A DNA stretch of 64,000 bases from an uncultured bacterium (GCA_963980215.1 CAXBYZ010000001.1:7370-71369); one strand, 5' to 3'; positions 9,819 to 47,234 are shown, counted from the first letter of the stretch. Notes: generated by a model not told the origin, from the letters alone. Program-made: numbers and translations.

Positions 9819-9837
9819 TCACACCTTAGAGGTGTGA
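9819..9837. repeat. REP-like hairpin, family A
   Basis: TCACACCTTAGAGGTGTGA. Overlaps the last 6 codons and the stop of secF. Confidence 0.7.
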
Positions 9838-10712
9838 TGTTTGGCCTTGAGATCCTCCCAGAGGACAAGGAGGGGGGCAGCGGTGAAGGTGGATGAGTAG
9901 GTGCCTGAGATAGTACCAATAAGTAGAGCAAAGACGAACCACTTGGTGGTGTCGCCACCCAAAAGATAGAGGGCAAGCAACATGAATATAATTGTTAAGG
10001 AGTTGTTGACTGATCGACCAAGAGTCTCGGTGACAGCTTTGTTGACTAGGTCTGTGTAGGACAGCCTGGGGTAAAGTTTGATGGATTCTCGGATACGATC
10101 GTAGACGACGATGGTGTCGTGAACTGAGAAAGAGAGAATGGTAAGGATGGCGGTGACAAAGAGAGCATCGACTTCAACTCCCCTAGTGACACCTAGGTAA
10201 CTAAAGATACCAACAGTAATAAAAGTGTCGTGAAGCATGGCCAAGATTGCACAGATACCGTACTTTTTATCTTTAAATCTAGTGGCTACGAAAACTAGGA
10301 TAAAACCGGCAGCGATAAAGACACCGATGAGAGTTTTTTTGATTAACTCTTTACCCATGGTTGGACCGACTGTCTCGAAACGAGTTTCTTCTACCTCCCC
10401 TAGCTGGTCTTCTAGGGTTTGTTTTATGGCTTGATTGGTTTCTTGATCGAACTGCTGAGCTTTAATGACAAAAATGTTGTTTTCTTGTTGTATAGCTTGA
10501 TTTAAGATAACGGTATCTTCAACAAGATTGGTAATTTTATCTAGTGACAACTCTTGGTCTTCTTTTGGAGTGATTGATATCTCTAAGATAGTTCCCCCAG
10601 TAAAGTCGACTGCTGGTTTTAGCCCGTGCTTGATTAGAAAAAAACTACTGGGAATCAGAAATAGTAAGGAGAAGAGAAAATAAAGTGTTTTGTACTTCAT
10701 GAAGTTGATCAT
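9819..10712 (-). CDS. secF: protein-export membrane protein SecF
   Basis: FTGGTILEISI and VHDTIVVYDRIRE motifs with 6 TM helices. The C-terminal HHTSKV and the stop are encoded by the REP hairpin. Confidence 0.85.
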   Translation of the reverse strand: MINFMKYKTLYFLFSLLFLIPSSFFLIKHGLKPAVDFTGGTILEISITPKEDQELSLDKITNLVEDTVILNQAIQQENNIFVIKAQQFDQETNQAIKQTLEDQLGEVEETRFETVGPTMGKELIKKTLIGVFIAAGFILVFVATRFKDKKYGICAILAMLHDTFITVGIFSYLGVTRGVEVDALFVTAILTILSFSVHDTIVVYDRIRESIKLYPRLSYTDLVNKAVTETLGRSVNNSLTIIFMLLALYLLGGDTTKWFVFALLIGTISGTYSSTFTAAPLLVLWEDLKAKHHTSKV

Positions 10713-10718
10713 AGTAGT

Positions 10719-12092
10719 TTAGGTTCGGAACCTAATTCTCCTCATTAAGGTTCTGGTGACAATAATACCGGTGAATAAACTGATAATAACTCCAACTAAT
10801 AAAGTAATGGCAAAGCCTCGAACCATTCCGGAGGTATTTAGAAAACTAAAGTTAAATGGATTAATTAAAACTAGACTAGTAATGATAGTGGCTATGTTGG
10901 CGTCTTTGATTGAGTCCCAAGCTCGACCAAAACCCAACTCTAGGGCAACTGCAAAAGGACGACCGCTTCTTAACTCTTCTTTGAGTCTCTCAAAGATTAA
11001 AATATTACTATCGACAGCCATGCCAACAGATAGAATGAAACCGGCAATACCTGGAAGTGTTAGGGTGACAGGGATGAGCTTGTAGATAGATAGGGTGATA
11101 AGACCGTAGATAAGAAGAGCAATGTTGGCCAGCAAACCATTGAGACCATATAGAAGAACCATAAATAACATAACTAGACCTAATCCAACTGAACCAGCGA
11201 TGATACTTTTTTGAATTGAGTTTTGGCCAAGAGTGGCGGAGATGTTTTTTTGTTCGATAATCTTAATTGGAACCGGAAGAGCTCCGGCGTTTAGTTGGAT
11301 GGATAGTTCTGAAGCGGCCTCTGGAGTGAAGTTACCGGAAATGACGGCTCGACCGTCTTTGATTTCTTCGTTGACAGTAGGAGCGGTGACTAACTGGTTG
11401 TCTAGAAATATGGCTACTGGTCTATTAATATTTCGTGAAGTGATGTCGGCAAATTTTTCTGAACCTTCTTTGGTAAACTCTAAGCCAACTACCGGCTGGT
11501 TAGCAGCTCCCTGACCACTAGAAAATGAGACAAGGGATTTTTTTAGATCTTTACCGGTAAGACCGGTGGACTCGAATGAAAAAACACGGGCAAAGGCTGA
11601 TGGACTAGCGTAGTTGACTTCATTGGCGTCTTGGCTAGTGTCTTCTCTAAAGTCTAGCTGAGCAGTTTGACCAATTAAATTGATAGCTTGTTCAACTTCT
11701 TGAACCCCCGGGAGTTCGACGATGATTCGATAAGAGTCTTTTACTAAAGAAGTTTTGACGATTGATTCACTAACACCGTAAAGGTCGACTCTTCTGGTAA
11801 TAATTTCTTTGGCTGATTCTAGAGCATTGGCTTTATCTAGTTCTTCGATTAGGCTCATATCTGTTTCTAAAACTAAGTGAGTGCCACCTTGAAGATCTAA
11901 GCCCTTTTTTAGGTTTAGATCCCGAGTAAAAGTTGATGAACCTAACTTTAGATTAATGCTTGGATGTGAGATGGTGGTGGAGAAATTTTTGTTGAATATG
12001 TTGATATTTATGGGGATGTTTGGAAGGTTTATGTAGATACAAATTAAAACCAATAGAAAAATTTGGAAGAGACGATTTTTGAGTAACTTCAT
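10719..12092 (-). CDS. secD: protein-export membrane protein SecD
   Basis: LDLQGGTHLVLE periplasmic-domain motif; C-terminal TM bundle. Confidence 0.85.
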   Translation of the reverse strand: MKLLKNRLFQIFLLVLICIYINLPNIPININIFNKNFSTTISHPSINLKLGSSTFTRDLNLKKGLDLQGGTHLVLETDMSLIEELDKANALESAKEIITRRVDLYGVSESIVKTSLVKDSYRIIVELPGVQEVEQAINLIGQTAQLDFREDTSQDANEVNYASPSAFARVFSFESTGLTGKDLKKSLVSFSSGQGAANQPVVGLEFTKEGSEKFADITSRNINRPVAIFLDNQLVTAPTVNEEIKDGRAVISGNFTPEAASELSIQLNAGALPVPIKIIEQKNISATLGQNSIQKSIIAGSVGLGLVMLFMVLLYGLNGLLANIALLIYGLITLSIYKLIPVTLTLPGIAGFILSVGMAVDSNILIFERLKEELRSGRPFAVALELGFGRAWDSIKDANIATIITSLVLINPFNFSFLNTSGMVRGFAITLLVGVIISLFTGIIVTRTLMRRIRFRT

Positions 12093-12277
12093 AATGTTTG
12101 AATGTTGCTTTCGATAGAAAGTTGTTTGGCACCCTTGAAGGTGTAGATAACTTGGCCAGTTTCTAGAATGGTTTTAACTTTGACTTGGTCTCCAGTTTTG
12201 ACACCAACTGATTTAACAAATTTTGAGGGAATAGTAACCCCGATACTGTTGCCGACTTTCATGACTTGTTGTTTCAT
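12089..12277 (-). CDS. AbrB/MazE/SpoVT-family small DNA-binding protein
   Basis: 62 aa with the swapped-hairpin signature MKVGNSIGVTIPSKFVK. Overlaps the secD start by 4 nt. Confidence 0.6.
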   Translation of the reverse strand: MKQQVMKVGNSIGVTIPSKFVKSVGVKTGDQVKVKTILETGQVIYTFKGAKQLSIESNIQTL

Positions 12278-12282
12278 GTGGC

Positions 12283-12867
12283 TTAACTAACCATTTCTTC
12301 TTCGTCACCGATTAACATGACTCGGCCACTTGATAGAATATTTTGGATAAAAGGATCGCGACGGGATTTTCTAAATTGAAATTCATCTATAGCCATGGGG
12401 GCGTAGTTGATTTCTTTTTCTCTAACTGATTCTGACTTTCTAACTAACTTATTTAACTCGGCCATATTGACAGCACCAACCACCAAGAGATCAATATCTT
12501 CCTCTGACTTTCTGGGCATTTGTCTAGCGTAACGACCAGAGAGCATGGCAAACTTAATGTTGCCAATTTTGTTTTTGTGCTTGATGATGTCTGCGCCTAA
12601 ACCAACAGTTTTAGCTGTCAAGCTAATTAGCTCTTGGTAGAAAGGATAGGTTTTGACAAAGAAGTAGTAAAGGCGATTACCTCGAGGTTCTTTTTTTACT
12701 AAACCTCTTTCTTCCATTCTAGCTAGTTCTCTTCGAACGGCATTGATCTCTTCATTGGTGCTTCTAACTAATTGACGAACATAGAACATTTCTGAAGGAT
12801 CTTTAAGAAAAGTTTGAATTAACTTTACTCTTACCTTTGAGACAAATAAATCTTTAAGGTTGGCCAT
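12283..12867 (-). CDS. hypothetical protein: N-terminal winged-helix domain plus nucleotidyltransferase-fold domain
   Basis: wHTH-like YVRQLVRSTNEEINAVRRELARMEERGLV; NTase-like GRYARQ...EDIDLLVVG. Confidence 0.45.
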   Translation of the reverse strand: MANLKDLFVSKVRVKLIQTFLKDPSEMFYVRQLVRSTNEEINAVRRELARMEERGLVKKEPRGNRLYYFFVKTYPFYQELISLTAKTVGLGADIIKHKNKIGNIKFAMLSGRYARQMPRKSEEDIDLLVVGAVNMAELNKLVRKSESVREKEINYAPMAIDEFQFRKSRRDPFIQNILSSGRVMLIGDEEEMVS

Positions 12868-12893
12868 GGGCCTCCTTTGTCGAGCAGATGTTA

Positions 12894-14081
12894 TTAATAA
12901 TCAACTTTTGTACCGACTGGTAGGGCGGATATCCAGATACGCCCTGGATTAAACTTAATCTCTTTACCTTTTTCGTCAAAGAAAGTAGTTCTCTTGAGAC
13001 GACTGGCTTTGGCCCATGTGCCTTCAATTAGATCACCGTCTTTGACGATGTAGGCTTTACCTTTTCCGGTAGTACCAAGTAGTAAGTGAACGTTACCTGG
13101 GTAGCCGTCGTTGGCTTTTCTTTCGGTAACAAACTGGAGAACGAGGTTTTTGGTGGAGAGTTGTTCATCTAGATTGATATCCATATGAGGCTTGGCTCCA
13201 TTGGTTCTTTTATAGGTGTTGGTTTCTTGATCATATTTCCAAGAAACGGCGTAGTTTTCGTCTTCCCAAAAGTTGTAGTCAATCGTGGTAATGGGACCGG
13301 TTTCACTTGACTCTTCTTTAACAAAGCTCCATGGTAGGTAGTCGTCTGCCCACTCTTCCTTGTCTTCGTTAATGTTAGTGTAGCCACGTTTTTCTCCGAT
13401 AGCCCAGAGTTTTTCGGTAGTGCTGTACATGGTGTGTTCGGTGGCCACGGTACGACCAAGTCTTTCGTAGTCACGCCAAAAAGTGGGGTAACCAATAGAG
13501 AATTGGTTCATATCTGTGGCTCCACCCCAACCATAAGTGTTGATCTGACCTAAAGCGTTGGCTGGTCCGGGGGTGTTGGCTCCACCGACGTGAGCGTAGA
13601 GGGGGAAGTTGTATTCTGAAGCCCAGTCTAGAAAATATGTGCGAGCACTTCTGATTGGACCTAGAATGGAGTCATAAGCTGAAGCTTGGCAGTAAAAAAC
13701 TGCCATAAATCTGGTGATACCACCCTCGGCAACGGCTTCATAAATTATGTCTGCATCGGATAAACCAGATTGAGGCCTGGACTCTAGATGGTTTTCGATC
13801 ATGACGGCTAGTGGTCTTCTTGATTCCCAGACTTTTTGTTCTGCTTTGGTGTAGCTAGCTCCATTTAGAGGACAAGTGGCTGACTTTGAACCGGAGATAT
13901 CAAAGAGGGATTTTCTGGAGGAGTTTGCCTCTTGTTCTTCACTACCAATTCCGTCTGGCAAAGGGGAGGTAAAGATAGAGCCTGATTTTGAGAGGTAGGT
14001 AAATGTAGCGTATGAGAAACCGGTTGAGAGTAAGTAAATTCCAAGACCGAGGAAGATTGCTAATGATTTTTTCTTGTTCAT
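12894..14081 (-). CDS. secreted DUF3048-family (YerB-like) protein
   Basis: Signal peptide/lipobox-like N-terminus; AVMIENH...ADIIYEAVAEGGITRF resembles the DUF3048 N-domain. Confidence 0.55.
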   Translation of the reverse strand: MNKKKSLAIFLGLGIYLLSTGFSYATFTYLSKSGSIFTSPLPDGIGSEEQEANSSRKSLFDISGSKSATCPLNGASYTKAEQKVWESRRPLAVMIENHLESRPQSGLSDADIIYEAVAEGGITRFMAVFYCQASAYDSILGPIRSARTYFLDWASEYNFPLYAHVGGANTPGPANALGQINTYGWGGATDMNQFSIGYPTFWRDYERLGRTVATEHTMYSTTEKLWAIGEKRGYTNINEDKEEWADDYLPWSFVKEESSETGPITTIDYNFWEDENYAVSWKYDQETNTYKRTNGAKPHMDINLDEQLSTKNLVLQFVTERKANDGYPGNVHLLLGTTGKGKAYIVKDGDLIEGTWAKASRLKRTTFFDEKGKEIKFNPGRIWISALPVGTKVDY

Positions 14082-14095
14082 AATAATACTTTCCT

Positions 14096-14557
14096 TTACT
14101 TTGCAGTTTGGATGGCCTTCTTCTCTTCGCTGGAGAGCTTAAAGCCATCTGATTTGCCATTTTTAATTGTTTTTGCGTAAAACCTAGTGGCATCACGCGA
14201 GTGTAGTGAGCTTAACACAAAACCGGTGTCTTTTTCATCTAGTAAACTTAGACAAAAACTTTGATCGCCTCCAGTTTGAGGGAATGGGTTAAAACGAATG
14301 AAACCAATTTTTTGGATGTGAGACTTCATCTTGGTTCTAGCAAGACTTAGTGACTTGGTTAGGGATTCTATTTCTTTTTGATTTAAGTTGGTTTGATTTA
14401 ATATTCCTGATAAAACAGTTTTTAAGTCTTTTTTGGTAATGTTCTTGGTGAGTTTATTGTAGTGGTAGATAGATCTGATTGAAAAGACAGTTAGAGTAAC
14501 GAGCCAAACAAAGAGGCCTAAAATGATCCATTGTAAGATGTAGGTTTCGAGTACCAT
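14096..14557 (-). CDS. DUF4446-like membrane-anchored protein
   Basis: N-terminal TM helix; FNPF...GGDQSF motif region. Confidence 0.5.
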   Translation of the reverse strand: MVLETYILQWIILGLFVWLVTLTVFSIRSIYHYNKLTKNITKKDLKTVLSGILNQTNLNQKEIESLTKSLSLARTKMKSHIQKIGFIRFNPFPQTGGDQSFCLSLLDEKDTGFVLSSLHSRDATRFYAKTIKNGKSDGFKLSSEEKKAIQTAK

Positions 14558-14621
14558 ATGTAATCGATTTTGAGGCTTGCAAGTAAATTTGTCAACGAGA
14601 AGATAATATAGTGATATAATT

Positions 14622-14873
14622 TTGGAGATGGCAAAAAGACGAACGAAAAAACAAAAACAAAAAATTCAAAAAAGACAAAATGAAGAAAAGGTAGTGGTAA
14701 ATAAGTATAAGTTTGAAGTGGAAAAGAGTAAAAAAAGATTGGCAACTGAAGTGAGAGAAAAGACGGAAGGGTTGGCTGATAAGAACTTGATTGTGAGAGA
14801 TTTATTAAAATCGATGATAATCTCGATAGTGATTTTGGGATTATTGGCTGGAATTTATTTTTTATTAAACTAG
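14622..14873 (+). CDS. hypothetical small basic protein with C-terminal TM anchor
   Basis: 83 aa; Lys-rich N-half, hydrophobic C-terminal helix. Extended -10 TGATATAAT upstream. Confidence 0.3.
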   Translation: MEMAKRRTKKQKQKIQKRQNEEKVVVNKYKFEVEKSKKRLATEVREKTEGLADKNLIVRDLLKSMIISIVILGLLAGIYFLLN

Positions 14874-15938
14874 AAGCTTACCGTTTGCTAGAATTGGTTT
14901 GCCGTTGACTAAAACTTTTGATTCTTTTGAAGTCATGGATTTAACTAGATCCCAGTGAATAGCTGATTTGTTGATGCCTCCCCCGTCTTTATCTTGGTAA
15001 GCACTACCTAAAGCCATGTGAATAGTGCCACCAATTTTTTCGTCAAATAGGGTGTTTAGCATTGGTTTTTTGATACCGTAATTGGTGCCGATAGCAAACT
15101 CACCTAAACGCTTGGCGCCTTTGTCTGTGTTAAGAGCGGCGTCTAGGTATTTATTGCCTTTTTTGGCTGAGGCTTTAACGACTTTACCTTTACTAAACTC
15201 AAGAGTGACCCCTTCAACGATATTGCCTGATCTTAATGATGGTAAGTCAAAGTAGACTTGACCTTCTGTTTTGTCATCTAGAGGTGCTCCAAAGACTTCT
15301 CCATCTGGCATGTTGTACTTACCGTCGGCTTTTTGAAATGTTCTATCAGTAAAACTTAAAGTGAGGTGGGTTTTTTCACCAATGACTTCTATTTTTTTGG
15401 CGTTATCGAGTTTTGCTTTTAGTTTGGTTAAAGTCTTGCCGATTTTACTCCAATCTTGGAGACAAGCTTTAAAGTAGATGTCTTCAAGTTCATCTAGAGA
15501 GATACCGGCTGATTGGGCCATGCTTTGACTAGGAAACTCGGTTAAAATCCAAGGTTTTTTGAGCATGATTTTTTTGATGGGTTCACTGGACTTGGCTGTG
15601 ATCATTAATTTCTTTGGGTCGATATTTGATAAAGACCTGCTGTTGTTGGCTGAGTAAAGTCTGATGAATTTATCTGCCCAGTTGGCTAGAAATAGAGAGA
15701 TTTCTGGCTTTTTTTGAAGCTGAGCTTGGGAGGCATTTTTGTAAAAAAAATAGTCTAGGTCTCCCGGTGAATAAACGGTGTGAGGAAAGGCGCCTTTTTT
15801 TAAACAAAGCTTGTAGACTTCTTTGGCTAAAATCCAAGCATCTTGATTGGCTGAAATTAAAACTTTATCGCCTTTTTTGACGTTGACTGAGTAGTCGGTC
15901 AAGATACTTGCTAGTTTGGAAACTTTTTTGTCTACCAT
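14865..15938 (-). CDS. aminopeptidase, M29 (AmpS/PepS, aminopeptidase T) family
   Basis: 357 aa; global similarity to thermophilic metalloprotease M29 members, judged from the whole-protein pattern rather than a single motif. Confidence 0.7.
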   Translation of the reverse strand: MVDKKVSKLASILTDYSVNVKKGDKVLISANQDAWILAKEVYKLCLKKGAFPHTVYSPGDLDYFFYKNASQAQLQKKPEISLFLANWADKFIRLYSANNSRSLSNIDPKKLMITAKSSEPIKKIMLKKPWILTEFPSQSMAQSAGISLDELEDIYFKACLQDWSKIGKTLTKLKAKLDNAKKIEVIGEKTHLTLSFTDRTFQKADGKYNMPDGEVFGAPLDDKTEGQVYFDLPSLRSGNIVEGVTLEFSKGKVVKASAKKGNKYLDAALNTDKGAKRLGEFAIGTNYGIKKPMLNTLFDEKIGGTIHMALGSAYQDKDGGGINKSAIHWDLVKSMTSKESKVLVNGKPILANGKLLV

Positions 15939-15955
15939 GGTTTGTATGGTACCAC

Positions 15956-17318: not shown

Positions 17319-17319
17319 A

Positions 17320-19190: not shown

Positions 19191-19269
19191 GATTTTTTAG
19201 GGGTAAGAATCTAGGGAGAGGTTATCAAATGTTTATCCAAAGGGCAAGTTTATATATAATAGATAAAGT

Positions 19270-19845: not shown

Positions 19846-19846
19846 T

Positions 19847-20671: not shown

Positions 20672-20690
20672 ATTAGTCCTTGAATGGTCC

Positions 20691-20719: not shown

Positions 20720-20727
20720 GTAAATAT

Positions 20728-21976: not shown

Positions 21977-21979
21977 GAT

Positions 21980-22776: not shown

Positions 22777-23117
22777 GGCTAGGAAGTGTGGTGATGCCCT
22801 GACTTTATGTCAGGGAGGAAAGTCCAGACTGCAGAAAACAGGGTGCCCAACGTAAGTTGGGGCTTGAGTAGACTTAGCTACCCAAGCCAGTGAAGCCACA
22901 GAGACGAGTTCTTTGTAAGTTAATTACTTATAAAAGAAGTGAAACGTCCTAAACCACAGTTGGTTTAGGAACTACTTTAACCTTTGGTTGAAGAGTGGTA
23001 ATTCTCCTCGCAGCAACTTCCGATCGATCCATTATGAGGATGTTTTCCCTAGGATCAAAGATTGAAGGCATTAGATAGATATCACCTTAAACAGAATCTG
23101 GCTTACTGCTTCCTAGC
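22777..23117 (+). ncRNA. rnpB: RNase P RNA (bacterial type)
   Basis: P4 halves GGAGGAAAGTCCAGAC (22815-22830) and AACAGAATCTGGCTTAC (23090-23106). P1 pairing GCTAGGAAG (22778-22786) with CTTCCTAGC (23109-23117). TATAAT at 22766-22771; T-run after the 3' end. Confidence 0.7.
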
Positions 23118-24113
23118 ACTTTTTTTAGGCTTAATTTTTAAAATTAAAATTGAGATGGCAATAACAAGCAGATAGCTTAATAAAGTTGGGGCGACCGGAA
23201 CGAGAGATAAATCAAATTTAAGTAAATGAAGTGGCATGGGGTGAGCTAGGTAAATAAGATAAGAGTTTTGGCCAAACCAAGCTAAGTATTTATTTTTAAG
23301 TAATTTAGAGGTATTGGTAAGAAAAAAGCCAATCAGACCAATTGCATAAATGAAGTTTGGTAATTTTGCAAAGCGAATAGCTTGAATAATATCCCCGCTT
23401 GAACTAACTATTTTTGAGGCTTCAAAAACTGATAAAAATAAACCTATAAATATTAGAGTGATTGAACTTCTCTTTGAGATAAACTTATCTTGACTGGCAA
23501 GGTAGATACCTAAGATGAAGTAGCCAGTCCAAACTAAAATATTACTGTGTTGAAGCTGATCTGGGATAAAAGGAATTTTTAGAGTGAAGTAGGAGTACAG
23601 ACCTAGCTTTATAACTAGAGCTAAGGAGAGAAGGGGTAGTAATAGTTTTTTGGGTAGTTTTTTTAGTAAGGCAAAGACTAGATAGAGTTTGAAGATAACC
23701 GGAACAAAGTAAAGATGGTAGTCGGCCCGACCGTTGAATATGATTTGAGAAGCTGACCAGCCACTTAAAACCTTCCACCAAGGTTTGATAAAAATTGACA
23801 AAGCTATGTAGTAGGCTGACCAAAGAATGTATAGAGGCAGGGTGGTGAAGCTTCTTTTTTTGATAAAAGATTTGAAGACAAAAGGTTTTTGTTGATAACT
23901 TAAACTTAGACCAAAACCAGACAGAAAGATAAAGATTGGGACGCAGAAACGCATGACTTGATCTAGAGATAGAAAGATTAAGTTTTGAGGGTGAGTGGTA
24001 AACTGTTCTTGAGTGGCGAGGGTAAGAAGGTGAATAGAAACAACAGCAAGAATAGATAGACCTTTGGCGGAGTTGACGGTGAGCCTGTCTTTATTAATTA
24101 AGGCGACAGACAT
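23103..24113 (-). CDS. acyltransferase family 3 (OafA-like) membrane protein
   Basis: 10-TM acyl_transf_3 architecture. 3' end overlaps rnpB by about 15 nt, antiparallel. Confidence 0.7.
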   Translation of the reverse strand: MSVALINKDRLTVNSAKGLSILAVVSIHLLTLATQEQFTTHPQNLIFLSLDQVMRFCVPIFIFLSGFGLSLSYQQKPFVFKSFIKKRSFTTLPLYILWSAYYIALSIFIKPWWKVLSGWSASQIIFNGRADYHLYFVPVIFKLYLVFALLKKLPKKLLLPLLSLALVIKLGLYSYFTLKIPFIPDQLQHSNILVWTGYFILGIYLASQDKFISKRSSITLIFIGLFLSVFEASKIVSSSGDIIQAIRFAKLPNFIYAIGLIGFFLTNTSKLLKNKYLAWFGQNSYLIYLAHPMPLHLLKFDLSLVPVAPTLLSYLLVIAISILILKIKPKKSARKQ

Positions 24114-34220: not shown

Positions 34221-34291
34221 CGGGGATTGGTTTAACGGTAGAATGCGCGGCTGGGGGTCGTGCGGCGACAGTTCAATTCTGTCATCCCCGA
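34221..34291 (+). tRNA. tRNA-Pro (anticodon GGG), no encoded CCA
   Basis: Cloverleaf built by hand. Acceptor CGGGGAT/ATCCCCG (C1:G72), discriminator A73, U8, A14, D-loop GG. Anticodon loop CUGGGGG (U33, G37). T-arm GACAG-TTCAATT-CTGTC. Confidence 0.8.
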
Positions 34292-34315: not shown

Positions 34316-34318
34316 TTA

Positions 34319-34337
34319 TCACACTCCAGGAGTGTGA
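34319..34337. repeat. REP-like hairpin, family A variant (TCACACTCCAGGAGTGTGA)
   Basis: Same ATCACAC...GTGTGAT arms as the canonical copies, different centre. Confidence 0.65.
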
Positions 34338-34348
34338 TATTATAAACA

Positions 34349-34729
34349 ATGAAAATAATAAAGAAATTAATTGAACCGAAGTATAGAAAGGAAGGTGGAT
34401 TGTGGATGTTGGATATTGATAAGATTGAAGTGGGGTTTGAGGTAAAACAACGATCTATAGTACATATTCCTCCTGGCCAACTAGGAGGCAATCACAAACA
34501 CCCCAGGACTGAAGCGTTTATTGGAATTGGTAGAGAGTTAGAGTTGGTGTGGAAAGAAAATGAGAAGCTAATAAAAGAGATGATGAATCCAGGGGGACAG
34601 CTAGTATTGTTTACTATTCCTCCACAAGTGGAGCATGCGGTGAAAAATAAGTCTGAAGCTGAAAACGGGATGTTGATTGAGTTGGCTGATGCTGAACAAG
34701 ATCTGGTAGAAGTTTGTAAATTAATCTAG
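34349..34729 (+). CDS. cupin-domain protein
   Basis: Cupin motif 1 GGNHKHPRTEAFIGIG (G-x-H-x-H-x3-E-x6-G) and motif 2 PPQVEHAVKN (P-x-x-x-H-x3-N). Confidence 0.65.
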   Translation: MKIIKKLIEPKYRKEGGLWMLDIDKIEVGFEVKQRSIVHIPPGQLGGNHKHPRTEAFIGIGRELELVWKENEKLIKEMMNPGGQLVLFTIPPQVEHAVKNKSEAENGMLIELADAEQDLVEVCKLI

Positions 34730-34730
34730 A

Positions 34731-34749
34731 TCACACCTTAGAGGTGTGA
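34731..34749. repeat. REP-like hairpin, family A
   Basis: TCACACCTTAGAGGTGTGA. Sits 1 nt after the cupin stop and supplies the stop plus HTSKV to the convergent phosphoribosyltransferase gene. Confidence 0.7.
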
Positions 34750-35279
34750 TTTTGGAAATATTTGACTTGTTCGGGGGAGAAATTAAGGGATTTGAGGGAG
34801 TCGAGTTTGCCTAGTTTTTTAAGGTCGTCTATGGTCTCTCTAACATCGTAAGCAAAAACTACCCACTTGTCTGTTTTGATTTGCCAGTAATCTGGCAAGG
34901 GTTTACTCCAAGGTTTGATAATGGGAGTGAAAGTGGTAATTTTTTTGGGTTTTAGGGGCTTTAAATAATTAAAGGCGGCTTTTAGAGTAGTACCTTTATC
35001 TGTAATTTCGTCGACTAGTAAAATTGACTCGCCTTTGATATCAACAGCTAATTTTTCAACAATTTTGGGCTCGCCGGAATTGCCAACACTGGCGTAGGAA
35101 ACGAGAGTGAAATTGGATATAGGTAGCTTTAGAAAATCTGAGAGAATGCGAGAGATGACTAAACCGCCACGAGAGATACAAACAATGCGATCGAACTTTA
35201 TTTTTTTGTCGATAACCGTTTTTGAAAATTGAAAGCAGTGGTCTTGGATTTGATCCCAAGAAATGTATTGAAATTTCAT
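34731..35279 (-). CDS. phosphoribosyltransferase (type I PRTase fold)
   Basis: PRPP-binding motif ILLVDEITDKGTTL. The C-terminal NHTSKV and the stop are REP-encoded. Confidence 0.7.
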   Translation of the reverse strand: MKFQYISWDQIQDHCFQFSKTVIDKKIKFDRIVCISRGGLVISRILSDFLKLPISNFTLVSYASVGNSGEPKIVEKLAVDIKGESILLVDEITDKGTTLKAAFNYLKPLKPKKITTFTPIIKPWSKPLPDYWQIKTDKWVVFAYDVRETIDDLKKLGKLDSLKSLNFSPEQVKYFQNHTSKV

Positions 35280-35291
35280 AGGTTTACTCTA

Positions 35292-35310
35292 TCACGCTCC
35301 AGGAGTGTGA
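35292..35310. repeat. REP-like hairpin, family A variant (TCACGCTCCAGGAGTGTGA)
   Basis: One mismatch in the stem relative to the 34319 copy. Confidence 0.6.
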
Positions 35311-35327
35311 TTGGGTGGTGTATTGGC

Positions 35328-35906: not shown

Positions 35907-35909
35907 ATT

Positions 35910-37621: not shown

Positions 37622-37638
37622 AGTGAGATGATTATACT

Positions 37639-38502: not shown

Positions 38503-38513
38503 GTGAGTAAAAT

Positions 38514-39876: not shown

Positions 39877-39902
39877 CCCTACAAGGATAAACCCTGTAGA
39901 TG
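39877..39902. repeat. REP-like element, family B variant (CCCTACAAGGATAAACCCTGTAGATG)
   Basis: CTACA-AGG...CCCTGTAG imperfect inverted repeat with the GTAG/CTAC signature. Confidence 0.5.
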
Positions 39903-39912
39903 AAAATACAAA

Positions 39913-39931
39913 TCACACTCCCGGAGTGTGA
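39913..39931. repeat. REP-like hairpin, family A variant (TCACACTCCCGGAGTGTGA)
   Basis: Contains the CACTCCCGGAGTG core found in the rplM/rplQ insertions. Confidence 0.65.
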
Positions 39932-39936
39932 TTTGG

Positions 39937-40785: not shown

Positions 40786-40812
40786 TTTGGGTAAATTATA
40801 GCAAAGAAAGTG

Positions 40813-40839
40813 CCTACAGGGTCGGACCCTGAAGGTTGG
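40813..40839. repeat. REP-like element, family B (CCTACAGGGTCGGACCCTGAAGGTTGG)
   Basis: CTAC + palindrome CAGGGTC-G-GACCCTG + GAAGGT. Confidence 0.6.
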
Positions 40840-40885
40840 CTTGACGGTGGAGAGAATTTGGGAGAAGATTTGAATAGTAGGTTTT

Positions 40886-41563
40886 ATGAAGAAACTAAAG
40901 AAAAAGTTGTTGATATCAAAGTGGTTGGGATTAGGATTGCTGATCCCCTCTTTATTGCTGAATGCCTACTTTGTTAGTCGGCCAAAAAGTGATTATGGAA
41001 TTGAAGTGATGGAGGTGTTGGATGGAGATACTTTGCTATTGGAAGGGAAAACTCGATTGAGGTTACGGCAAGTGGATATGCCGGAACTTGATAATTGTTA
41101 TGGACAGGAAGCTAAACAATTATTGGAAGAGATGGTAAAGGGAAAGAAAATTACTATTCAAGATAAAATCTTGGATCAGCGAGGTCGAGCCATGGCTTTG
41201 GTCTATTTGGGAGATAGATTAGTCAACTTGGAGTTATTAAAGAATGGTATGGGACGGTATCATTCGGACAAAACTCGAGCGACTGAGGAGTTGAAAGCGG
41301 CCGGAGCCAAAGCGAAGGCAGAAAATTTGGGAGTGTACTCGCCGGAGTGTTACCAACAAGAAAAAAATTTGGAAAAACCGGAGTGTATTATTAAGGGAAA
41401 TATCGATTTAAATAATCAAAGTATTAAGAGATATTACTACCCGGGTTGTGCCCAGTATAAATTCGTGATTGTGGAGAAAGATAAAGGTGAAGATTGGTTT
41501 TGTAGTGAAGCGGAGGCTGAGGTGGCAGGGTATGTGAAGGCTAAATCCTGCCCGGAGGGATGA
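40886..41563 (+). CDS. secreted staphylococcal-nuclease (SNase/thermonuclease) family nuclease with C-terminal Cys-containing domain
   Basis: Signal/TM N-terminus; SNase motifs [36 protein letters not shown]-terminal KGNI...YYYPGCAQY...[13 protein letters not shown] module. Confidence 0.75.
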
Positions 41564-41581
41564 AGTTTTAAGAGAAGGTTG

Positions 41582-41604
41582 CCTACAAGGTTGGACCCTG
41601 AAGG
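41582..41604. repeat. REP-like element, family B (CCTACAAGGTTGGACCCTGAAGG)
   Basis: Same CTACA-GG...CCCTGAAGG framework as the 40813 copy. Confidence 0.6.
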
Positions 41605-41625
41605 AAAAAGATCATGGTAAAATAG

Positions 41626-42270
41626 ATGAATATGAAAAAGCGAATGTTTTTTGCGTCAAGCATAGATAGAGTGGCAAGTCATATAGTTGGGAAAATTGAA
41701 GGAGGAGTGGATGGACTAAAGTCGGTGTTTATTAATACAGCTGCGGAAGCGGAGGAAGGTGATAAAAGTTGGATGGAAATTGATAGAACTGGATTAAATG
41801 AAGCTGGAATTAAAACTTTTGATTATACTATTACCGGTAAAACTAAAAGTGATTTGGAACGAGATTTAGGTGATTGTGAGTGGATCCATGTAAATGGCGG
41901 AAATGCTTTTTATTTACTACTCCAAATGCGAAAGTCGGGGTTTGACCAATTTATTAAGAGGCAGATTAATAAAGGGGTTATTTATTCCGGTTCAAGTGCT
42001 GGCTCGATAGTGGCGGCACCGGATATTGAAATTACTAAATGTATTGAGAGTAAAGACTTTGAAAAAGAGCTTGGAAGTTTTGAAGGATTAGGATTAGTAG
42101 ATTTTATTACTCTACCTCATTGGGGTGGTGATGATTTTAGAGAATTATATTTAAATCAAAAAATTAAGTCTGCTTATAGAAAAGGGAATAAAATCATTTT
42201 GTTGAATGATGATCAGTATGTGGAAGTGGTGGATGGAAATTATAAAATTGTGGATGTAACGAAAGATTAA
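41626..42270 (+). CDS. peptidase S51 (dipeptidase E-like)
   Basis: GGNAFYLL and GSSAGSIV (Ser nucleophile) motifs. Confidence 0.7.
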   Translation: MNMKKRMFFASSIDRVASHIVGKIEGGVDGLKSVFINTAAEAEEGDKSWMEIDRTGLNEAGIKTFDYTITGKTKSDLERDLGDCEWIHVNGGNAFYLLLQMRKSGFDQFIKRQINKGVIYSGSSAGSIVAAPDIEITKCIESKDFEKELGSFEGLGLVDFITLPHWGGDDFRELYLNQKIKSAYRKGNKIILLNDDQYVEVVDGNYKIVDVTKD

Positions 42271-42273
42271 AAG

Positions 42274-42298
42274 ACCTTCAAGGACTGTCCTTGAAGGT
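42274..42298. repeat. REP-like element, family B, perfect 12-bp-arm palindrome (ACCTTCAAGGAC-T-GTCCTTGAAGGT)
   Basis: Perfect inverted repeat by inspection. Confidence 0.6.
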
Positions 42299-42351
42299 GC
42301 GGGAAAATAGTTTTCTCAAGAGAATTTTATTTGTGAATAAATTATAGGGTT

Positions 42352-42375
42352 ATACAGGGACTGTCCTTGAAGGTG
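42352..42375. repeat. REP-like element, family B (TACAGGGACTGTCCTTGAAGGTGG)
   Basis: CAGGGAC-T-GTCCTTG with one mismatch. Confidence 0.55.
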
Positions 42376-42392
42376 GAGGGCTAGAGTTTTGA

Positions 42393-42791
42393 TTAACGTT
42401 TGGGGGATTGGCGCTTACGCCTGGCGGAGCCACCCATGCCGGCTTTGCGTCGTTCTCTTTTTCGTGGGTCTCTAGTAACTAGACCTTTTTTCTTTAGAAT
42501 TGGTTTGAATTTCTCTTCATTGACTTTGATTAAGGTTCGTGCAATTCCGTGAATAGTGGCATCTAGTTGACTGGATTTGCCTGAACCTAAAACTTTGACG
42601 GTAACGTAGTATTTTTCTAGAACGTTGCAGATTTTGAATGGCTCTAGGAATAAACCTTGGTTGACTGAACCAGGAAAGTACTTACTAACTGGCAGATCAT
42701 TGACTTCGTGGTCACCTTTTCCAGTGAATAGTCTAACTCGAGCGATGGCTCTTTTTCTTCTTCCGGTTGCGTAAACGTATTTTTTTGACAT
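42393..42791 (-). CDS. rpsI: 30S ribosomal protein S9
   Basis: YATGRRKRAIARVRL...GGSARRKRQSPKR. Confidence 0.93.
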   Translation of the reverse strand: MSKKYVYATGRRKRAIARVRLFTGKGDHEVNDLPVSKYFPGSVNQGLFLEPFKICNVLEKYYVTVKVLGSGKSSQLDATIHGIARTLIKVNEEKFKPILKKKGLVTRDPRKRERRKAGMGGSARRKRQSPKR

Positions 42792-42793
42792 AT

Positions 42794-43279
42794 TTATTTA
42801 TCCTTTTTTAATTTCTTAACAGACACTCCTGGAGTGGGAACTTCTTTCACTCCGGGAGTGAGAGATTTCTTTAATTTATCAGCATAAATGTGGGTTTCTG
42901 TTTTAAATATTTTTAATCTCTTTAACCTTGGACTTCTTAGCTTGTTTTTTGGCAACATGCTGGAAACTGCTCTAGTAATAATTTTTCTTGAATCTTTTTC
43001 TAACTGACGGTCAAAGGTGATTTGTTTTAAGCCATTTGGAAAGTTGGTGTGGCGGTAGTAAATTTTATTTTGTTCTTTTCTACCAGTTACTTTGACGTCG
43101 TTGCTGTTTATGACTACTACATAGTCTCCACAATCTAGGTGGGAAGTGAAGTAGGGTTTGGTCTTGCCGATTAATTTTTGGGCAATTTGAGTAGCGACTC
43201 GACCCAAAACTTGGTCTTTGACATCTACTAGATGCCAATCTCTTTTTATATCTGATTGTTTGGTTGCGTATGTGTCCAT
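42794..43279 (-). CDS. rplM: 50S ribosomal protein L13 with REP-encoded C-terminal extension
   Basis: L13 core; after ...IYADKLKK comes SLTPGVKEVPTPGV (encoded by the 42824-42860 element) then SVKKLKKDK. Confidence 0.9.
   Translation of the reverse strand: MDTYATKQSDIKRDWHLVDVKDQVLGRVATQIAQKLIGKTKPYFTSHLDCGDYVVVINSNDVKVTGRKEQNKIYYRHTNFPNGLKQITFDRQLEKDSRKIITRAVSSMLPKNKLRSPRLKRLKIFKTETHIYADKLKKSLTPGVKEVPTPGVSVKKLKKDK
42824..42860. repeat. BIME-like inverted pair of family-A hairpins (CACTCCTGGAGTG-GGAACTTCTTT-CACTCCGGGAGTG), in frame inside the rplM 3' end
   Basis: 36/37 identical to 43297-43333. The two hairpins are reverse complements of each other. Translated on the minus strand as LTPGVKEVPTPGV. 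Confidence 0.7.
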
Positions 43280-43281
43280 AA

Positions 43282-43701
43282 TTATTTCTCCACTTTCACT
43301 CCCGGAGTGGGAACTTCTTTCACTCCGGGAGTGAGTGAAGATTCTATTTTATCGACGAATTCGATTTTGGCCATCATGGTGTTGTCTCCCCTTCTTTGAC
43401 CTAGTCTAACTATTCTAGTAAAACCAGAGTTTCTTTTTTTAGCTCTAGGAGCGATAACGTCAAAAAGATGATTGGCAGCTTTCTTGTGTGAGAGAAAAGC
43501 CATAACTTGGCGACGACAAGACAGAGAACCCTGCCTAGCTTTAGTCATTAATTTGTCAATTAATGGCTTTATTGCTTTGGCTTTGGCCTCGGTAGTCTTG
43601 ATCTGCTCTTTGAAGATCAAGTTAGTGAGCAAGCTTTTAAATAAAGCTTTTCTCTGTTTGATGTTTCTACCAAGTTTCTTGGATTTGACTCTGTGTCTCA
43701 C
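43282..43701 (-). CDS. rplQ: 50S ribosomal protein L17 with REP-encoded C-terminal extension
   Basis: L17 core (...FTRIVRLGQRRGDN); tail SLTPGVKEVPTPGVKVEK. Confidence 0.9.
   Translation of the reverse strand: MRHRVKSKKLGRNIKQRKALFKSLLTNLIFKEQIKTTEAKAKAIKPLIDKLMTKARQGSLSCRRQVMAFLSHKKAANHLFDVIAPRAKKRNSGFTRIVRLGQRRGDNTMMAKIEFVDKIESSLTPGVKEVPTPGVKVEK
43297..43333. repeat. BIME-like inverted pair of family-A hairpins, in frame inside the rplQ 3' end
   Basis: CACTCCCGGAGTGGGAACTTCTTTCACTCCGGGAGTG. Confidence 0.7.
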
Positions 43702-43703
43702 AA

Positions 43704-44621
43704 TTACTCCTTGACGATAACGTCTTTTTCTTTGAGTTTATCGATAATAATATCTATGGATTTGCCACCGAGATTTTTAACTTTAGTAATATCTGATCGA
43801 GTAGCCTTAGATAACTCCTTGACTGTAGAGTAACCACCATTGCGTAGAGCGTTGGCGATACGAGTGGGAAGATCTAACTCTTCGACTGATAGTTTTAAGG
43901 ATTCGTTTTCATCGACTGCTTCTGTCTCTTCTTCTACTTGGACTTCAAATGTTGGGTCGACAATTTGAGTGAAGGAAGAGATTAAGATAGAGGCGGCTTG
44001 CTCTAAAGCTTTTGATGGCTTGATGGTACCGTCGGTGTAGATTTCCATGACTAGTTTGTCTAGGTCAATCTTTCTACCAACGCGGGCAACCTCGACATTG
44101 TAGTTGACTCTAACAACTGGAGAGAATGATGCGTCTAGAACCATCTGGCCAAGTTTCTGGGCTTGACGATTTCTGGCTGGCAAGTAACCGTGGCCAGTTT
44201 CGACTTCCATTTTTACATCTAGTTTTGAGTTTTTGTCTGAAAGAGTGGCTAAAACTAAATCCTTGTTGGCAATCTTGACGTTGGCTGGAGTTTTGATGTC
44301 TCCGGCTTTGACTTCTCCTGGACCAACTGCGTTTAGACTTAACTCTAGAGGTTTTTCACCGGTGTAGCTTAGTCTAACTTGCTTTAGGTTTAAGAGTAGT
44401 TCAACAATATCTTCTTTGACTCCTGAAAGAGAAGTGAATTGGTGGGTAACTCCGTCTATAGATGCGTTGGTGATAGCGGCTCCAGTTAGACTTGAAAGAA
44501 GAACTCTTCTTAAAGCGTTACCGATAGTTTGACCATAACCCTTTTCTAGTGGAGTTAGTTCGAATTTACCGAAGTCTTCTGTCTCGGCAATGGCAGTTGT
44601 TTTAAAGTTTGGTTTGATCAT
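43704..44621 (-). CDS. rpoA: DNA-directed RNA polymerase subunit alpha
   Basis: N-terminal dimerisation domain plus alpha-CTD; full-length similarity. Confidence 0.92.
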   Translation of the reverse strand: MIKPNFKTTAIAETEDFGKFELTPLEKGYGQTIGNALRRVLLSSLTGAAITNASIDGVTHQFTSLSGVKEDIVELLLNLKQVRLSYTGEKPLELSLNAVGPGEVKAGDIKTPANVKIANKDLVLATLSDKNSKLDVKMEVETGHGYLPARNRQAQKLGQMVLDASFSPVVRVNYNVEVARVGRKIDLDKLVMEIYTDGTIKPSKALEQAASILISSFTQIVDPTFEVQVEEETEAVDENESLKLSVEELDLPTRIANALRNGGYSTVKELSKATRSDITKVKNLGGKSIDIIIDKLKEKDVIVKE

Positions 44622-44635
44622 AAAAATAATCTCCT

Positions 44636-45250
44636 TTATCTTGAGTAGAACTCAACGATGAGCTGCTCTTGAATATTAATATCTATTTCTTCACGTTCTG
44701 GCAGTCTTTCTAGTTTAGCAGCAACCGCTTTTCTTTTGAGCCACTTGGGAATGACCATGTCTTTTTTTGCTTTTGCTAAAAGAGCGGCTACATCTGGAAT
44801 CTTTTGACCTTTGGCGTCTAGGCTGATGACTTGGCCGATCTTGACTAGGTACGATGGAATGCTTAGTTTTTTGCCGTCTACCATGACATGGCCATGGGAA
44901 ACTAGCTGACGAGCGGCTGGCCTAGTGGCGGCAAATCCGGCTCGATAGACTAAGTTATCTAGACGAGACTCTAGGATCTGGAGAAGCTTTTCTCCGGTAG
45001 CACTTTGAGTCTTTCTAGCTACTTTGTAGTATCTTCTGAATTGTCTCTCTAGAACCCCGTAGGCAGTTTTTAGTTTCTGTTTTTCTTTTAGCTGTGAGCC
45101 GTAATCTGATAGCCTTCTTTTGAGTTTTTTACCGTGAAATCCTGGTGGATGAGGTTTTTTGGCTAGAAGTTTGTCAAACTTGGGAGAACCAAAGATGTTC
45201 TCTCCAAATTTTCTAACTAGCTTACCTCTTTTGGTTGAAACTTTTGCCAT
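44636..45250 (-). CDS. rpsD: 30S ribosomal protein S4
   Basis: Full-length similarity. Confidence 0.92.
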   Translation of the reverse strand: MAKVSTKRGKLVRKFGENIFGSPKFDKLLAKKPHPPGFHGKKLKRRLSDYGSQLKEKQKLKTAYGVLERQFRRYYKVARKTQSATGEKLLQILESRLDNLVYRAGFAATRPAARQLVSHGHVMVDGKKLSIPSYLVKIGQVISLDAKGQKIPDVAALLAKAKKDMVIPKWLKRKAVAAKLERLPEREEIDINIQEQLIVEFYSR

Positions 45251-45252
45251 AT

Positions 45253-45633
45253 TTATCCTCTACGCCTCTTTTTGGGACGACAACCATTGTGGGGAATGGG
45301 TGTAATATCTGATATTTGAGTAACTTTTACTCCACTAGATCTGATGACACCAAGAACTGCGTCTCTGCCTGAACCTGGGCCCTTGATAAAGACTTGAACG
45401 GTGGTGAGACCACGATCTTTGGCTTTGGCAAGAACGGCCTCAATAGCTGTAGAGGCGGCAAATGGAGTGGATTTTCTTGAACCCTTGAAACCTGAAGCTC
45501 CAGTGGAACCCCAAGTGATAACATTACCTTTTATGTCCGTGATGGAAATTAGGGTGTTGTTGAAGGTAGCGGTAATAAAAATTTTACCGGTGGTGATTTT
45601 GGTAGTGGATGTGGTTGGTTTATCGTTTTTCAT
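45253..45633 (-). CDS. rpsK: 30S ribosomal protein S11
   Basis: Full-length similarity. Confidence 0.92.
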   Translation of the reverse strand: MKNDKPTTSTTKITTGKIFITATFNNTLISITDIKGNVITWGSTGASGFKGSRKSTPFAASTAIEAVLAKAKDRGLTTVQVFIKGPGSGRDAVLGVIRSSGVKVTQISDITPIPHNGCRPKKRRRG

Positions 45634-46028
45634 TTTTTAGCTGCCTCCATTTTTGCGGCATCTTCTTTCTTTAGAGCTCCGACGGTCATTCTGCGACCAC
45701 GCCTGGTTCTGGCGTTGTGTCTTGTTCTTTGGCCTCGTGATGGTAACTTAGCAGCATGACGCATGCCTCTGTAGGTGCCGATTTGCCTAAGTCTTTTGAT
45801 GTTTTCGGTGATTATTTTTCGGAGTGAACCTTCGGTGGGAAGAGTTTCTAAGGACTTTTGAATTCTAACAACTTCTTCTGAGGTGAGATCTTTGGCTCTC
45901 TTATCTGGGTCGACATTGGCAAGCTTTAAAACTTTTTTGACATTTTCTCGGCCAATACCGTAGAGATAGGTTAAGGCGATGCCTGTTTTTTTGTTTTGAG
46001 GTAGGTCGATTCCTGATATTCTTGGCAT
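45630..46028 (-). CDS. rpsM: 30S ribosomal protein S13
   Basis: MPRISGIDLP...GIG. Confidence 0.92.
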   Translation of the reverse strand: MPRISGIDLPQNKKTGIALTYLYGIGRENVKKVLKLANVDPDKRAKDLTSEEVVRIQKSLETLPTEGSLRKIITENIKRLRQIGTYRGMRHAAKLPSRGQRTRHNARTRRGRRMTVGALKKEDAAKMEAAKK

Positions 46029-46032
46029 AAAT

Positions 46033-46126
46033 TATCCTTGACGCTGTTTATGGCGAGGATTCTCACAAATAACGTAGACAACCCCCTTGCGACGGACTGT
46101 CTTGCATTTTATACATCTTTTTTTGA
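46033..46126 (-). CDS. rpmJ: 50S ribosomal protein L36
   Basis: Manual translation [37 protein letters not shown]. Too short for the ORF track. Confidence 0.85.
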
Positions 46127-46198
46127 CTGATGCTTGTACTTTCATAAAAAAATCTCAAAACCATTTTATTTAAAATAGCAGGTTTTGAGGTTATTTAG

Positions 46199-46420
46199 TT
46201 ATTTTAATCTGTAAACGATGCGACCCTTGTCTTCATCGTAAGGGGATTGCTCCACTTTGACTTTATCTCCAGGAAGGACACGAATTCTGTACATTCGCAT
46301 TTTTCCACCGAGATGACAAAAAATTGTTTTGTCTGAGTTGTCAACTTTTACTTTGAAGGTGGCATTGGGAAGATTCTCAATGACTACTCCTTCTACTTCT
46401 ATAATGTCTTTCTGACTCAT
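46199..46420 (-). CDS. infA: translation initiation factor IF-1
   Basis: S1-like fold; full-length similarity. Confidence 0.92.
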
Positions 46421-46466
46421 TATTGTCCTTATTATATCAGATAATTAATAATTTTTCTATAATTTA

Positions 46467-47204
46467 CTAGGTTAGAATAACTGGGCCGTTTTTGGTGACG
46501 GCGACAGTGTGTTCAAACATGCCAGCTAGCTTACCGTCTTTGGTGGCAATTGTCCAACCGTCTTTTTTATCGGTGATGGTGTCGCTTGAACCTTGCATGT
46601 AGATAATTTCGATAGCTATGGTTAGCCCTTCTTCAATTACTGGAGTAGATTTGACGTCTTCCTCAAGGTAACAAGGAATCATGGGCTGGTGATGAAGAGT
46701 GGTGCTGATGCCATGGCCAGTTAAATTCCTAGCAACATTGTAGCCTTCTTTTTCAACAGTTTCTTGCATGGCTCTTGAGATGTGGCCAATGTGTTTGCCA
46801 ACTTTGGCTTGCTTGATAGCTAGATTTAAGGCTTTTTCTCCGGTTTCGAGAAATTTTTTCTTTTCTTGGTAGTCATCTGGTTTACCGATAATGAAAGTAA
46901 ATGAGGTGTCTGTGTGATAACCTTTAAAATAAATACCGACGTCTATAGAGACGACGTCCCCGTCTTTAATAACTTTGTCATCTGGAATGCCGTGAACTAA
47001 CCCAGAGTTTAAGTTTATACAAGTGGCCCAAGAGTAACCGGGAACCATGGCAAAGCTGGCTTGACCGCCGGCCTCTTTGATTAACTTTTGAGCTTCGGCT
47101 TCGATTTGGCTTAATTTCATCCCCACTTTAGTTGTTTGAATTAGGGTTTTTTTTATCTCTTTTAACTTAGCTCCACCGATGGCCATTATTTTGACTTTAT
47201 CCAT
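46467..47204 (-). CDS. map: methionine aminopeptidase
   Basis: Pita-bread fold metal ligands. Start taken at ATG 47204 (MDKVKIMAIG...). The track ORF start 47219 is a GTG inside the REP hairpin. Confidence 0.85.
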   Translation of the reverse strand: MDKVKIMAIGGAKLKEIKKTLIQTTKVGMKLSQIEAEAQKLIKEAGGQASFAMVPGYSWATCINLNSGLVHGIPDDKVIKDGDVVSIDVGIYFKGYHTDTSFTFIIGKPDDYQEKKKFLETGEKALNLAIKQAKVGKHIGHISRAMQETVEKEGYNVARNLTGHGISTTLHHQPMIPCYLEEDVKSTPVIEEGLTIAIEIIYMQGSSDTITDKKDGWTIATKDGKLAGMFEHTVAVTKNGPVILT

Positions 47205-47215
47205 AGTTACCTCTA

Positions 47216-47234
47216 TCACACCTTAGAGGTGTGA
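47216..47234. repeat. REP-like hairpin, family A
   Basis: TCACACCTTAGAGGTGTGA. Supplies the stop and HTSKV to cmk. Confidence 0.7.

Follow-up and report, generated by a model that had tools for sequence, protein, structure and literature searches.

The repetitive extragenic palindromic (REP) sequences of Proteobacteria and their REP-associated tyrosine transposases (RAYTs) form the so-called REPtrons, in which a gene encoding a Y1 protein of the HUH type has copies of its own short palindrome on either side (E. coli yafM/TnpArep, Stenotrophomonas and Pseudomonas RAYTs; Bertels and Rainey). One class of REP corresponds to each RAYT (Nunvar et al. 2010, PMC2817692). REPs are mostly located just downstream of open reading frames (ORFs), often at <20 bp, and many are near or overlapping coding regions; in several species they are also found in-frame within genes, slightly more than 10% of the intragenic copies being at the ORF end (Di Nocera et al. 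2013, PMC3733652). RAYTs are described as single-copy genes at fixed loci, and REPINs (REP doublets) as almost exclusively extragenic (bioRxiv 10.1101/2021.07.10.451892). Here we analysed a 64,000-nt stretch of DNA from an uncultured bacterium (GCA_963980215.1, CAXBYZ010000001.1:7370-71369), hereafter the window, which displays a dispersed 21-nt hairpin and a RAYT-like gene at 9111-9785. We consider it likely that this gene and the hairpin, as its repeat unit, make up a system of the REP/RAYT type. As in the described systems, the Y1 gene is flanked by its own repeat, solo repeats are dispersed and much more numerous than the gene, a separate class of repeat goes with each RAYT paralogue, the gene keeps its syntenic position in 5 lineages, and most repeats follow closely on the end of an ORF, where neighbouring genes run in one direction or converge. 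The host, in contrast, is not a proteobacterium but a member of the Patescibacteria (Beckwithbacteria-like, a candidate phylum), and a literature search for REPs in Patescibacteria found no paper linking the two. We regard the element of the window as the known REP/RAYT system in the form that it takes in a compact genome, rather than as a new type of element. With it, REP/RAYT biology reaches the Patescibacteria and a genome with almost no extragenic space, where the C-termini and stops of essential genes, namely secF, cmk, cca and even the RAYT gene, are rewritten by the repeats.

A preliminary description of this stretch had reported four identical copies of the 19-mer TCACACCTTAGAGGTGTGA. 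Exact matches were found at 9089, 9819, 34731 and 47216, all with the loop TAG on the plus strand, against 0.02 matches expected by shuffling, and 0 of 100 shuffles reached 8 matches. The full repeat is the 21-mer ATCACACCT-TAG-AGGTGTGAT (9088-9108, 9818-9838, 34730-34750 and 47215-47235), which forms a 9-bp stem with a 3-nt loop and has an RNA folding energy of -11.1 kcal/mol. On the strand carrying the CTA loop, the hairpin is followed in most copies by AGAG[G/T]T[A/G]A, a flank that usually reads AGAGGTAA (opposite strand TTACCTCT). The copies, together with the RAYT-like gene and secF, are the following:

9080-9108, minus strand: REP copy 1, with the hairpin at 9088-9108 and the flank AGAGGTAA (minus strand) at 9080-9087.
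9111-9785, minus strand: RAYT-like Y1 (HUH) transposase gene, 224 aa, between REP copies 1 and 2.
9810-9839, minus strand: REP copy 2, with the hairpin at 9818-9838 and a degenerate flank, GGGGGTAG, at 9810-9817.
9819-10712, minus strand: secF, with the last 5-6 codons and the stop from the hairpin (KAK-HHTSKV).
34730-34750, minus strand: REP copy 3, a lone hairpin at the point where two genes converge, giving NHTSKV and a TGA to a phosphoribosyltransferase (PRT).
47207-47235, minus strand: REP copy 4, with the hairpin at 47215-47235 and the flank AGAGGTAA at 47207-47214, giving NHTSKV to Cmk.

REP copy 1 is 2 nt beyond the stop of the RAYT gene and 13 nt beyond that of the convergent cca gene. 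REP copy 2, whose stem extends to 10 bp over 9817-9839, doubles as the upstream REP of the RAYT gene and as the origin of the SecF tail and stop (TGA 9821-9819). The TAG stop of a cupin gene (34349-34729, plus strand) abuts REP copy 3, and REP copy 4 is found inside a secY-adk-cmk-map operon.

Translation agrees with the earlier observation that three unrelated proteins share a C-terminus: SecF (9819-10712, minus strand) ends in LKAKHHTSKV, the PRT (34731-35279, minus strand) in KYFQNHTSKV and Cmk (47216-47938, minus strand) in LKLINHTSKV, each with the TGA at hairpin positions 18-20 as its stop (here and below, tails are written up to the stop). The proteins match their families (SecF TIGR00966, 265 bits; Cmk TIGR00017, 233 bits; PRT PF00156); the family models stop 11-23 residues short of the stop codon, and the HTSKV tail is therefore outside the conserved domain. 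None of the relatives devoid of the hairpin ends in HTSKV, and the first refuting condition named in the preliminary description thus does not hold. The closest such Cmk proteins end in ELKLVA, ELKLIT or ELNLVA, while PRT relatives have the native tails KYFLSK, FFLKA or KYFLDKKD; about 25 of the 120 closest SecF homologues have hairpin-derived tails in various frames and variants, and the remaining ones have short K/R-rich tails such as WEEIKSRKK. One Cmk relative ends in LKLISHL, which is the hairpin in another reading frame. Thus, the hairpin replaced native codons, and SecF, the PRT and Cmk of the window each lost 1-4 of them and gained (N/H)HTSKV. These data support the initial proposal of a REP-type repeat whose own sequence encodes HTSKV and a stop, although that proposal had overlooked the RAYT-like gene between copies 1 and 2 and the AGAGGTAA flank. 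We also considered TGA recoding and rejected it: TGA ends 18 of the 73 long ORFs, ORF lengths match those of homologues, and TGA is a genuine stop in this organism.

An identical ending on unrelated proteins might be taken for a selected peptide motif with a function at the C-terminus, for instance in sorting or degradation, the DNA palindrome being secondary, and HTSKV indeed ends at least 10 unrelated proteins in several genomes. We find this hardly credible, since in a different frame or from the opposite strand the same DNA gives SHL, HTLEV or ITP, many copies lie outside coding sequence, the SecF tail follows the hairpin variant of each lineage (HTPGV, HTPEV), and the proteins differ in cellular compartment and function.

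The RAYT-like protein carries the HUH motif NHFHLL (H86, H88) and a catalytic tyrosine, Y146, within RYIHLNP, and it matches Pfam Y1_Tnp above the cutoff (E 5.6e-9); H86, H88 and Y146 are invariant across a 15-sequence alignment. RAYT homologues adjoin a hairpin of the same stem, or lie between two of them, at more than 12 loci, in Beckwithbacteria, WWE3, other Patescibacteria, Omnitrophota, Planctomycetia and other lineages, and the gene is flanked on both sides by the hairpin in the window and in contigs L041, L109, L002, L034, L017, L018, L021 and L120. The loops are lineage-specific (TAG/CTA, CCG/CGG, ACG/CGT, CCA/TGG) with the palindrome kept, and CP011210 has a compensated stem variant, ATCACACAC-CGG-GTGTGTGAT. 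The gene order secD-secF-hairpin-RAYT-hairpin-cca, with cca convergent, is found in the window, L041/L100, L109, L034/L111/L115 and CP011210 (L002/L116), lineages among which SecF identity goes down to 60%. The two genes bordering the locus end as follows:

SecF tail HTSKV: window, L041 and L109.
SecF tail TSHL: L034.
SecF tail HHTPGV: CP011210.
CCA enzyme with its native end, 13 nt before the hairpin: window.
CCA enzyme tail HTSKV: L034.
CCA enzyme tail ITP: L109.
CCA enzyme tail HTPGV: CP011210.

At the secF site, the 21-mer is identical in species whose SecF proteins are 70-81% identical, and it is therefore constrained or being homogenised. Besides, the SecD protein of L109 (6207-7469) terminates in SHSHTSKV, so that secD and secF both stop in hairpin copies in that contig.

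The hairpin-gene-hairpin unit (~750 bp) also resembles an autonomous insertion sequence (IS) of the IS200/IS605 type, in which case the solo hairpins would be end remnants or derivatives akin to miniature inverted-repeat transposable elements, and not part of a domesticated REP/RAYT system. With IS608 and ISDra2 it shares the Y1 HUH catalytic core, a unit of ~0.7 kb, subterminal hairpins presumably recognised as single-stranded DNA and, in the window and L041, gene-flanking hairpins that are direct like IS200/IS605 left and right ends; the top match of our protein profile in the PDB is the ISDra2 TnpA (E 2e-4), and the presence of the unit in unrelated phyla suggests horizontal mobility. However, IS200/IS605 TnpA proteins are ~130-155 aa long whereas the proteins described here have 215-236 aa, about 70 residues more, and 15/15 aligned proteins match the NCBIfam RAYT model (best E 2e-18) when only 1/15 matches the IS200 model NF033573 (E 4e-4). 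Moreover, the unit stays between secF and cca even where SecF identity between lineages has dropped to 60%, the abundant population consists of solo hairpins (4-7 in 64 kb versus one gene copy per hairpin family), and multiple full-length copies were not seen, with one per paralogue in 64 kb. We consequently regard an IS200/IS605 element as unlikely.

Several observations nevertheless weigh against an assignment to REP/RAYT. The best NCBIfam model for the window protein is REP_Tyr_transpos (NF047646), but the score of 53.3 bits is under the curated cutoff of 80. The 15-sequence profile, which was needed because a PDB search with the single sequence gave only noise, fits ISDra2 TnpA slightly better than E. 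coli TnpArep (E 2e-4 and E 1e-3, respectively). The hairpins flanking the gene are direct rather than inverted in the window and L041, by loop and flank alike, while the loops are inverted in L017, L018, L021, L034 and L040; copy orientation is defined solely by the 3-nt loop and the flank, which are uncoupled in some copies. The hairpin foot has no GTAG/CGTC head and instead a conserved flank, AGAGGT[A/G]A, and the copies are singlets, not REPIN doublets. The locus is syntenic in 5 lineages, yet the same stem and RAYT clade are also present in other phyla, which suggests horizontal spread, unlike classical domesticated RAYTs. Finally, the frame encoding HTSKV is used by 10/15 sense-strand readers (P=0.0085) and by 13/25 on both strands (P=0.04), a real but modest bias, which shared ancestry partly inflates.

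If the REP/RAYT reading is right, the 224-aa protein would recognise the hairpin as folded single-stranded DNA, cut beside it and transfer it elsewhere, either by copying or by moving it; RAYT catalysis and a single-stranded DNA mechanism are inferred here by analogy with characterised Y1 enzymes. The RAYT locus between secF and cca would be inherited vertically. Because this genome has almost no intergenic space, surviving copies would lie at gene junctions, either just past a stop, on the last few codons or, rarely, in-frame where a gene can tolerate them. On the sense strand, the unit has TAA in one frame and TGA-TAG-AGG-TAA in another (the latter also at REP copy 4, in the Cmk frame), so that a gene hit at its end would be terminated at once, with a tail of 3-6 residues (SHL or HTSKV) and no long aberrant product. 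SecF, the PRT and Cmk may have lost their native codons through such a landing of the hairpin at the gene end.

The placement of the repeat was followed in genome and metagenome contigs, where at least 93 exact copies with the TAG/CTA loop fall into at least 41 site clusters; the window itself has 4 exact and 3 variant hairpins per RAYT gene in 64 kb. Among the matches listed, an ORF of at least 80 codons stops within the hairpin in about 16 of 41 site clusters (~39%), whereas 4.1% of random 21-nt windows of the same DNA contain such a stop, and the copies are thus placed non-randomly with respect to stops. The stop used is the terminal TGA in 11 of these sites, the loop TAA in 3-4 and the loop TAG in 2. 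Some 10 further sites have a stop at most 13 nt upstream of the hairpin, often TAA plus 1-2 nt, and 5 have in-frame or read-through copies. A stop overlap of about 40% sets these repeats apart from classical REPINs, which are described as almost exclusively extragenic. Convergent genes can both end within one hairpin (L034 6749, L070 499), as in L034 6749 where the CCA enzyme ends in HTSKV and the RAYT in HTLEV. One in-frame copy, located 435 nt ahead of the stop of a glycosyltransferase gene (AFTS-ITPLRCD-LVIAGK), is kept in five diverged orthologues (L019 2750, L069 242, L071 471, L078 and L124), and another encodes SHLRGVIEV in L097 and L008. Rickettsia palindromic elements (RPE) and intragenic REPs (PMC3733652) are similarly tolerated in-frame within genes, to which they add peptide segments; in contrast to them, the repeats studied here affect coding sequence mainly by replacing the extreme C-terminus and donating a stop, not by decorating genes internally, and the unit of 21-29 nt is much shorter.

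The junction between cmk and map allows a comparison of filled and empty sites, the hairpin being present in some close relatives and absent in others. The gene downstream of the hairpin is:

46467-47204, minus strand: map (methionine aminopeptidase), with ATG 47204 as probable start.

In the empty junctions (L061, L065), the cmk TAA overlaps the map ATG (ACTTAATGACC). The filled junction of L063 reads AAATTAAT followed by ATCACACCT-TTG-AGGTGTGAT-AGAGGTAAGCTCATAA and then ATG, and that of the window TTAATCA followed by the hairpin, AGAGGTAACT and ATG. These two filled lineages differ in insertion offset, loop and reading frame, and they are not sisters: P0003 is nearest to the empty P0004 (80% identity), with the window protein as an outgroup (74-76%). 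Two gains are therefore more parsimonious than one gain and two precise losses, and two apparently independent gains at one junction would hint at a preferred site. The preliminary description had proposed that the element either targets stop-proximal sequence or replaced native 3' ends. Replacement is borne out by the 1-4 native codons lost per gene, whereas active targeting is only suggested by the double hit at cmk-map, and the same stop-proximal pattern could result from selection where intergenic space is almost absent from the genome. A shared target motif, also raised at that time, did not emerge, as the sequence 5' of the insertions is A/T-rich, often TAA plus 1-2 nt, with no definable consensus.

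The GTG at 47219-47217, inside the hairpin, is mechanically the ORF start of map, as had been pointed out. The map ATG (47204-47202) sits 4 nt after AGAGGT, and it is probably the true start, the hairpin GTG being an ORF-caller artefact. For annotation, such false GTG starts in the hairpin and the recurrent HTSKV, SHL and HTLEV tails are repeat-derived. The window Map protein starts with MDKVKIMAIGG, and its N-terminus is about 8 residues shorter than in relatives (MTSINLKTTQEIAVMKEGG; compared with L061 10705-11466), so that the insertion of the repeat may also have reset the start of map.

We took the flank as part of the unit because it also occurs in contexts unrelated to a Shine-Dalgarno (SD) sequence, such as REP copy 1 in a convergent spacer, and because the empty cmk-map sites lack it. 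In 14/38 unique flank-bearing copies, about 40%, a long ORF begins 2-10 nt beyond the flank (for example map in the window, L023, L031, L058, L107 and L117), and AGGAG/GAGG-type SDs are used in the window. Judged from sequence, AGAGGT may serve as a ribosome-binding site; it can also pair with the ACCTCT of the 5' arm or with upstream coding sequence. A bolder and rather doubtful possibility is that the repeat acts as a self-contained cassette of translational punctuation, combining stops in 2/3 frames (a triple stop in one), a hairpin and an SD-like AGAGGT. Such a cassette would insert at the overlapping stop/start operon junctions of ultra-compact genomes of the candidate phyla radiation without killing either neighbour, would replace TAATG-type coupling by SD-based re-initiation and may prefer such junctions. 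The idea comes from the cmk-map junction being hit twice in non-sister lineages, from the position of AGAGGT before starts in these 14/38 copies, and from the empty cmk-map junctions being devoid of an SD. If it holds, a selfish repeat would have evolved built-in signals that neutralise its own insertional damage.

A terminator hairpin fused to the coding ends had been suggested for the three genes, and the hairpin as an intrinsic (rho-independent) terminator of secF, the PRT gene and cmk is rejected here: a scan of the minus strand gave no terminator-like site at REP copies 2, 3 and 4, no sense-strand U-tract follows any of these genes, and the cmk copy is intra-operonic. On the plus strand, REP copy 1 is followed by the T-run of TTTTTATT and is therefore terminator-like for cca only. 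More generally, the hairpin might be a host regulatory signal selected at gene ends (a terminator, a stabiliser of mRNA 3' ends or a protein-binding site), its link to the transposase being incidental. REPs are known to stabilise upstream mRNA, and the stem stability of -11.1 kcal/mol, the T-run behind cca and the conservation of the 21-mer beyond neutral expectation at orthologous sites would all agree with this. Yet, apart from the lack of U-tracts and the copy inside the secY-adk-cmk-map operon, the hairpin shows presence/absence at the same junction among close relatives, has in-frame copies within coding regions, is strictly co-located with RAYT homologues across phyla and matches no Rfam family (at gathering thresholds, the whole window gave an RNase P RNA and one tRNA only). 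A purely regulatory origin is accordingly improbable in our view; a regulatory function might nonetheless exist alongside mobility.

The window also has variants of the hairpin (A2, of the form ATCACACTCC-N-GGAGTGTGAT), which keep the outer stem of the repeat described above (family A):

34318-34338, strand not assigned: variant family-A hairpin (A2) ATCACACTCC-A-GGAGTGTGAT, upstream of the cupin gene.
35283-35311, minus strand: A2 hairpin at 35291-35311 with the flank AGAGTAA, 5 nt before the PRT ATG.
39912-39932, strand not assigned: A2 hairpin ATCACACTCC-C-GGAGTGTGAT, whose stem lengthens to 12 bp over 39909-39935.

The A2 hairpin ahead of the PRT start is followed by AGAGTAAACCT-ATG. At the orthologous site of L117 (1887) the exact family-A 21-mer is present, and the repeat type was therefore turned over in place. 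A tRNA gene (34221-34291, plus strand) lies 27 nt upstream of the variant at 34318, within a group of three hairpins surrounding the PRT and cupin genes, both of which are absent in the syntenic relative L061.

A second RAYT-like paralogue is encoded at 62264-62914 (plus strand; 216 aa, E 6e-33 against the first). It is flanked by a distinct hairpin, family B (ACCTWCAAGGAT..ATCCTTGAAGGT), near 62224-62248 and 62916-62938, which is also found at 42274-42298. The 12-mer ATCCTTGAAGGT has 8 matches in the whole window versus 0.47 by chance, and two exact ones, at 62425 and 62729, are within the coding sequence of the paralogue.

Contigs L010, L019, L020, L034 and L044 all have the hairpin and are labelled as Pseudomonadales/Gammaproteobacteria metagenome-assembled genomes. 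L034 displays the Beckwithbacteria-like secF-RAYT-cca synteny with a CCA enzyme matching that of the window at E 1e-211, and these labels are probably binning errors.

In the window, 62 of the 73 long ORFs are on the minus strand and the cumulative G-C of the plus strand reaches +4078 over 64 kb, a steady excess of G over C that runs counter to the way in which gene orientation and skew usually go together. GC skew was considered for assigning the replication strand and set aside as ambiguous (plus strand G>C, 85% of genes on the minus strand). The RNase P RNA (class A, 103 bits) is at 22778-23121 (plus strand).

Some copies have CTA and TAG loops exchanged with respect to the AGAGGT/ACCTCT flank (L019, L034 6749, L075, L077, L091 and others), and the loop was therefore inverted within the palindrome. 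Partial tandem repeats of the 3' arm (GTGTGAT-AGAGGTGTGAT) were observed in L046, L091 and L121.

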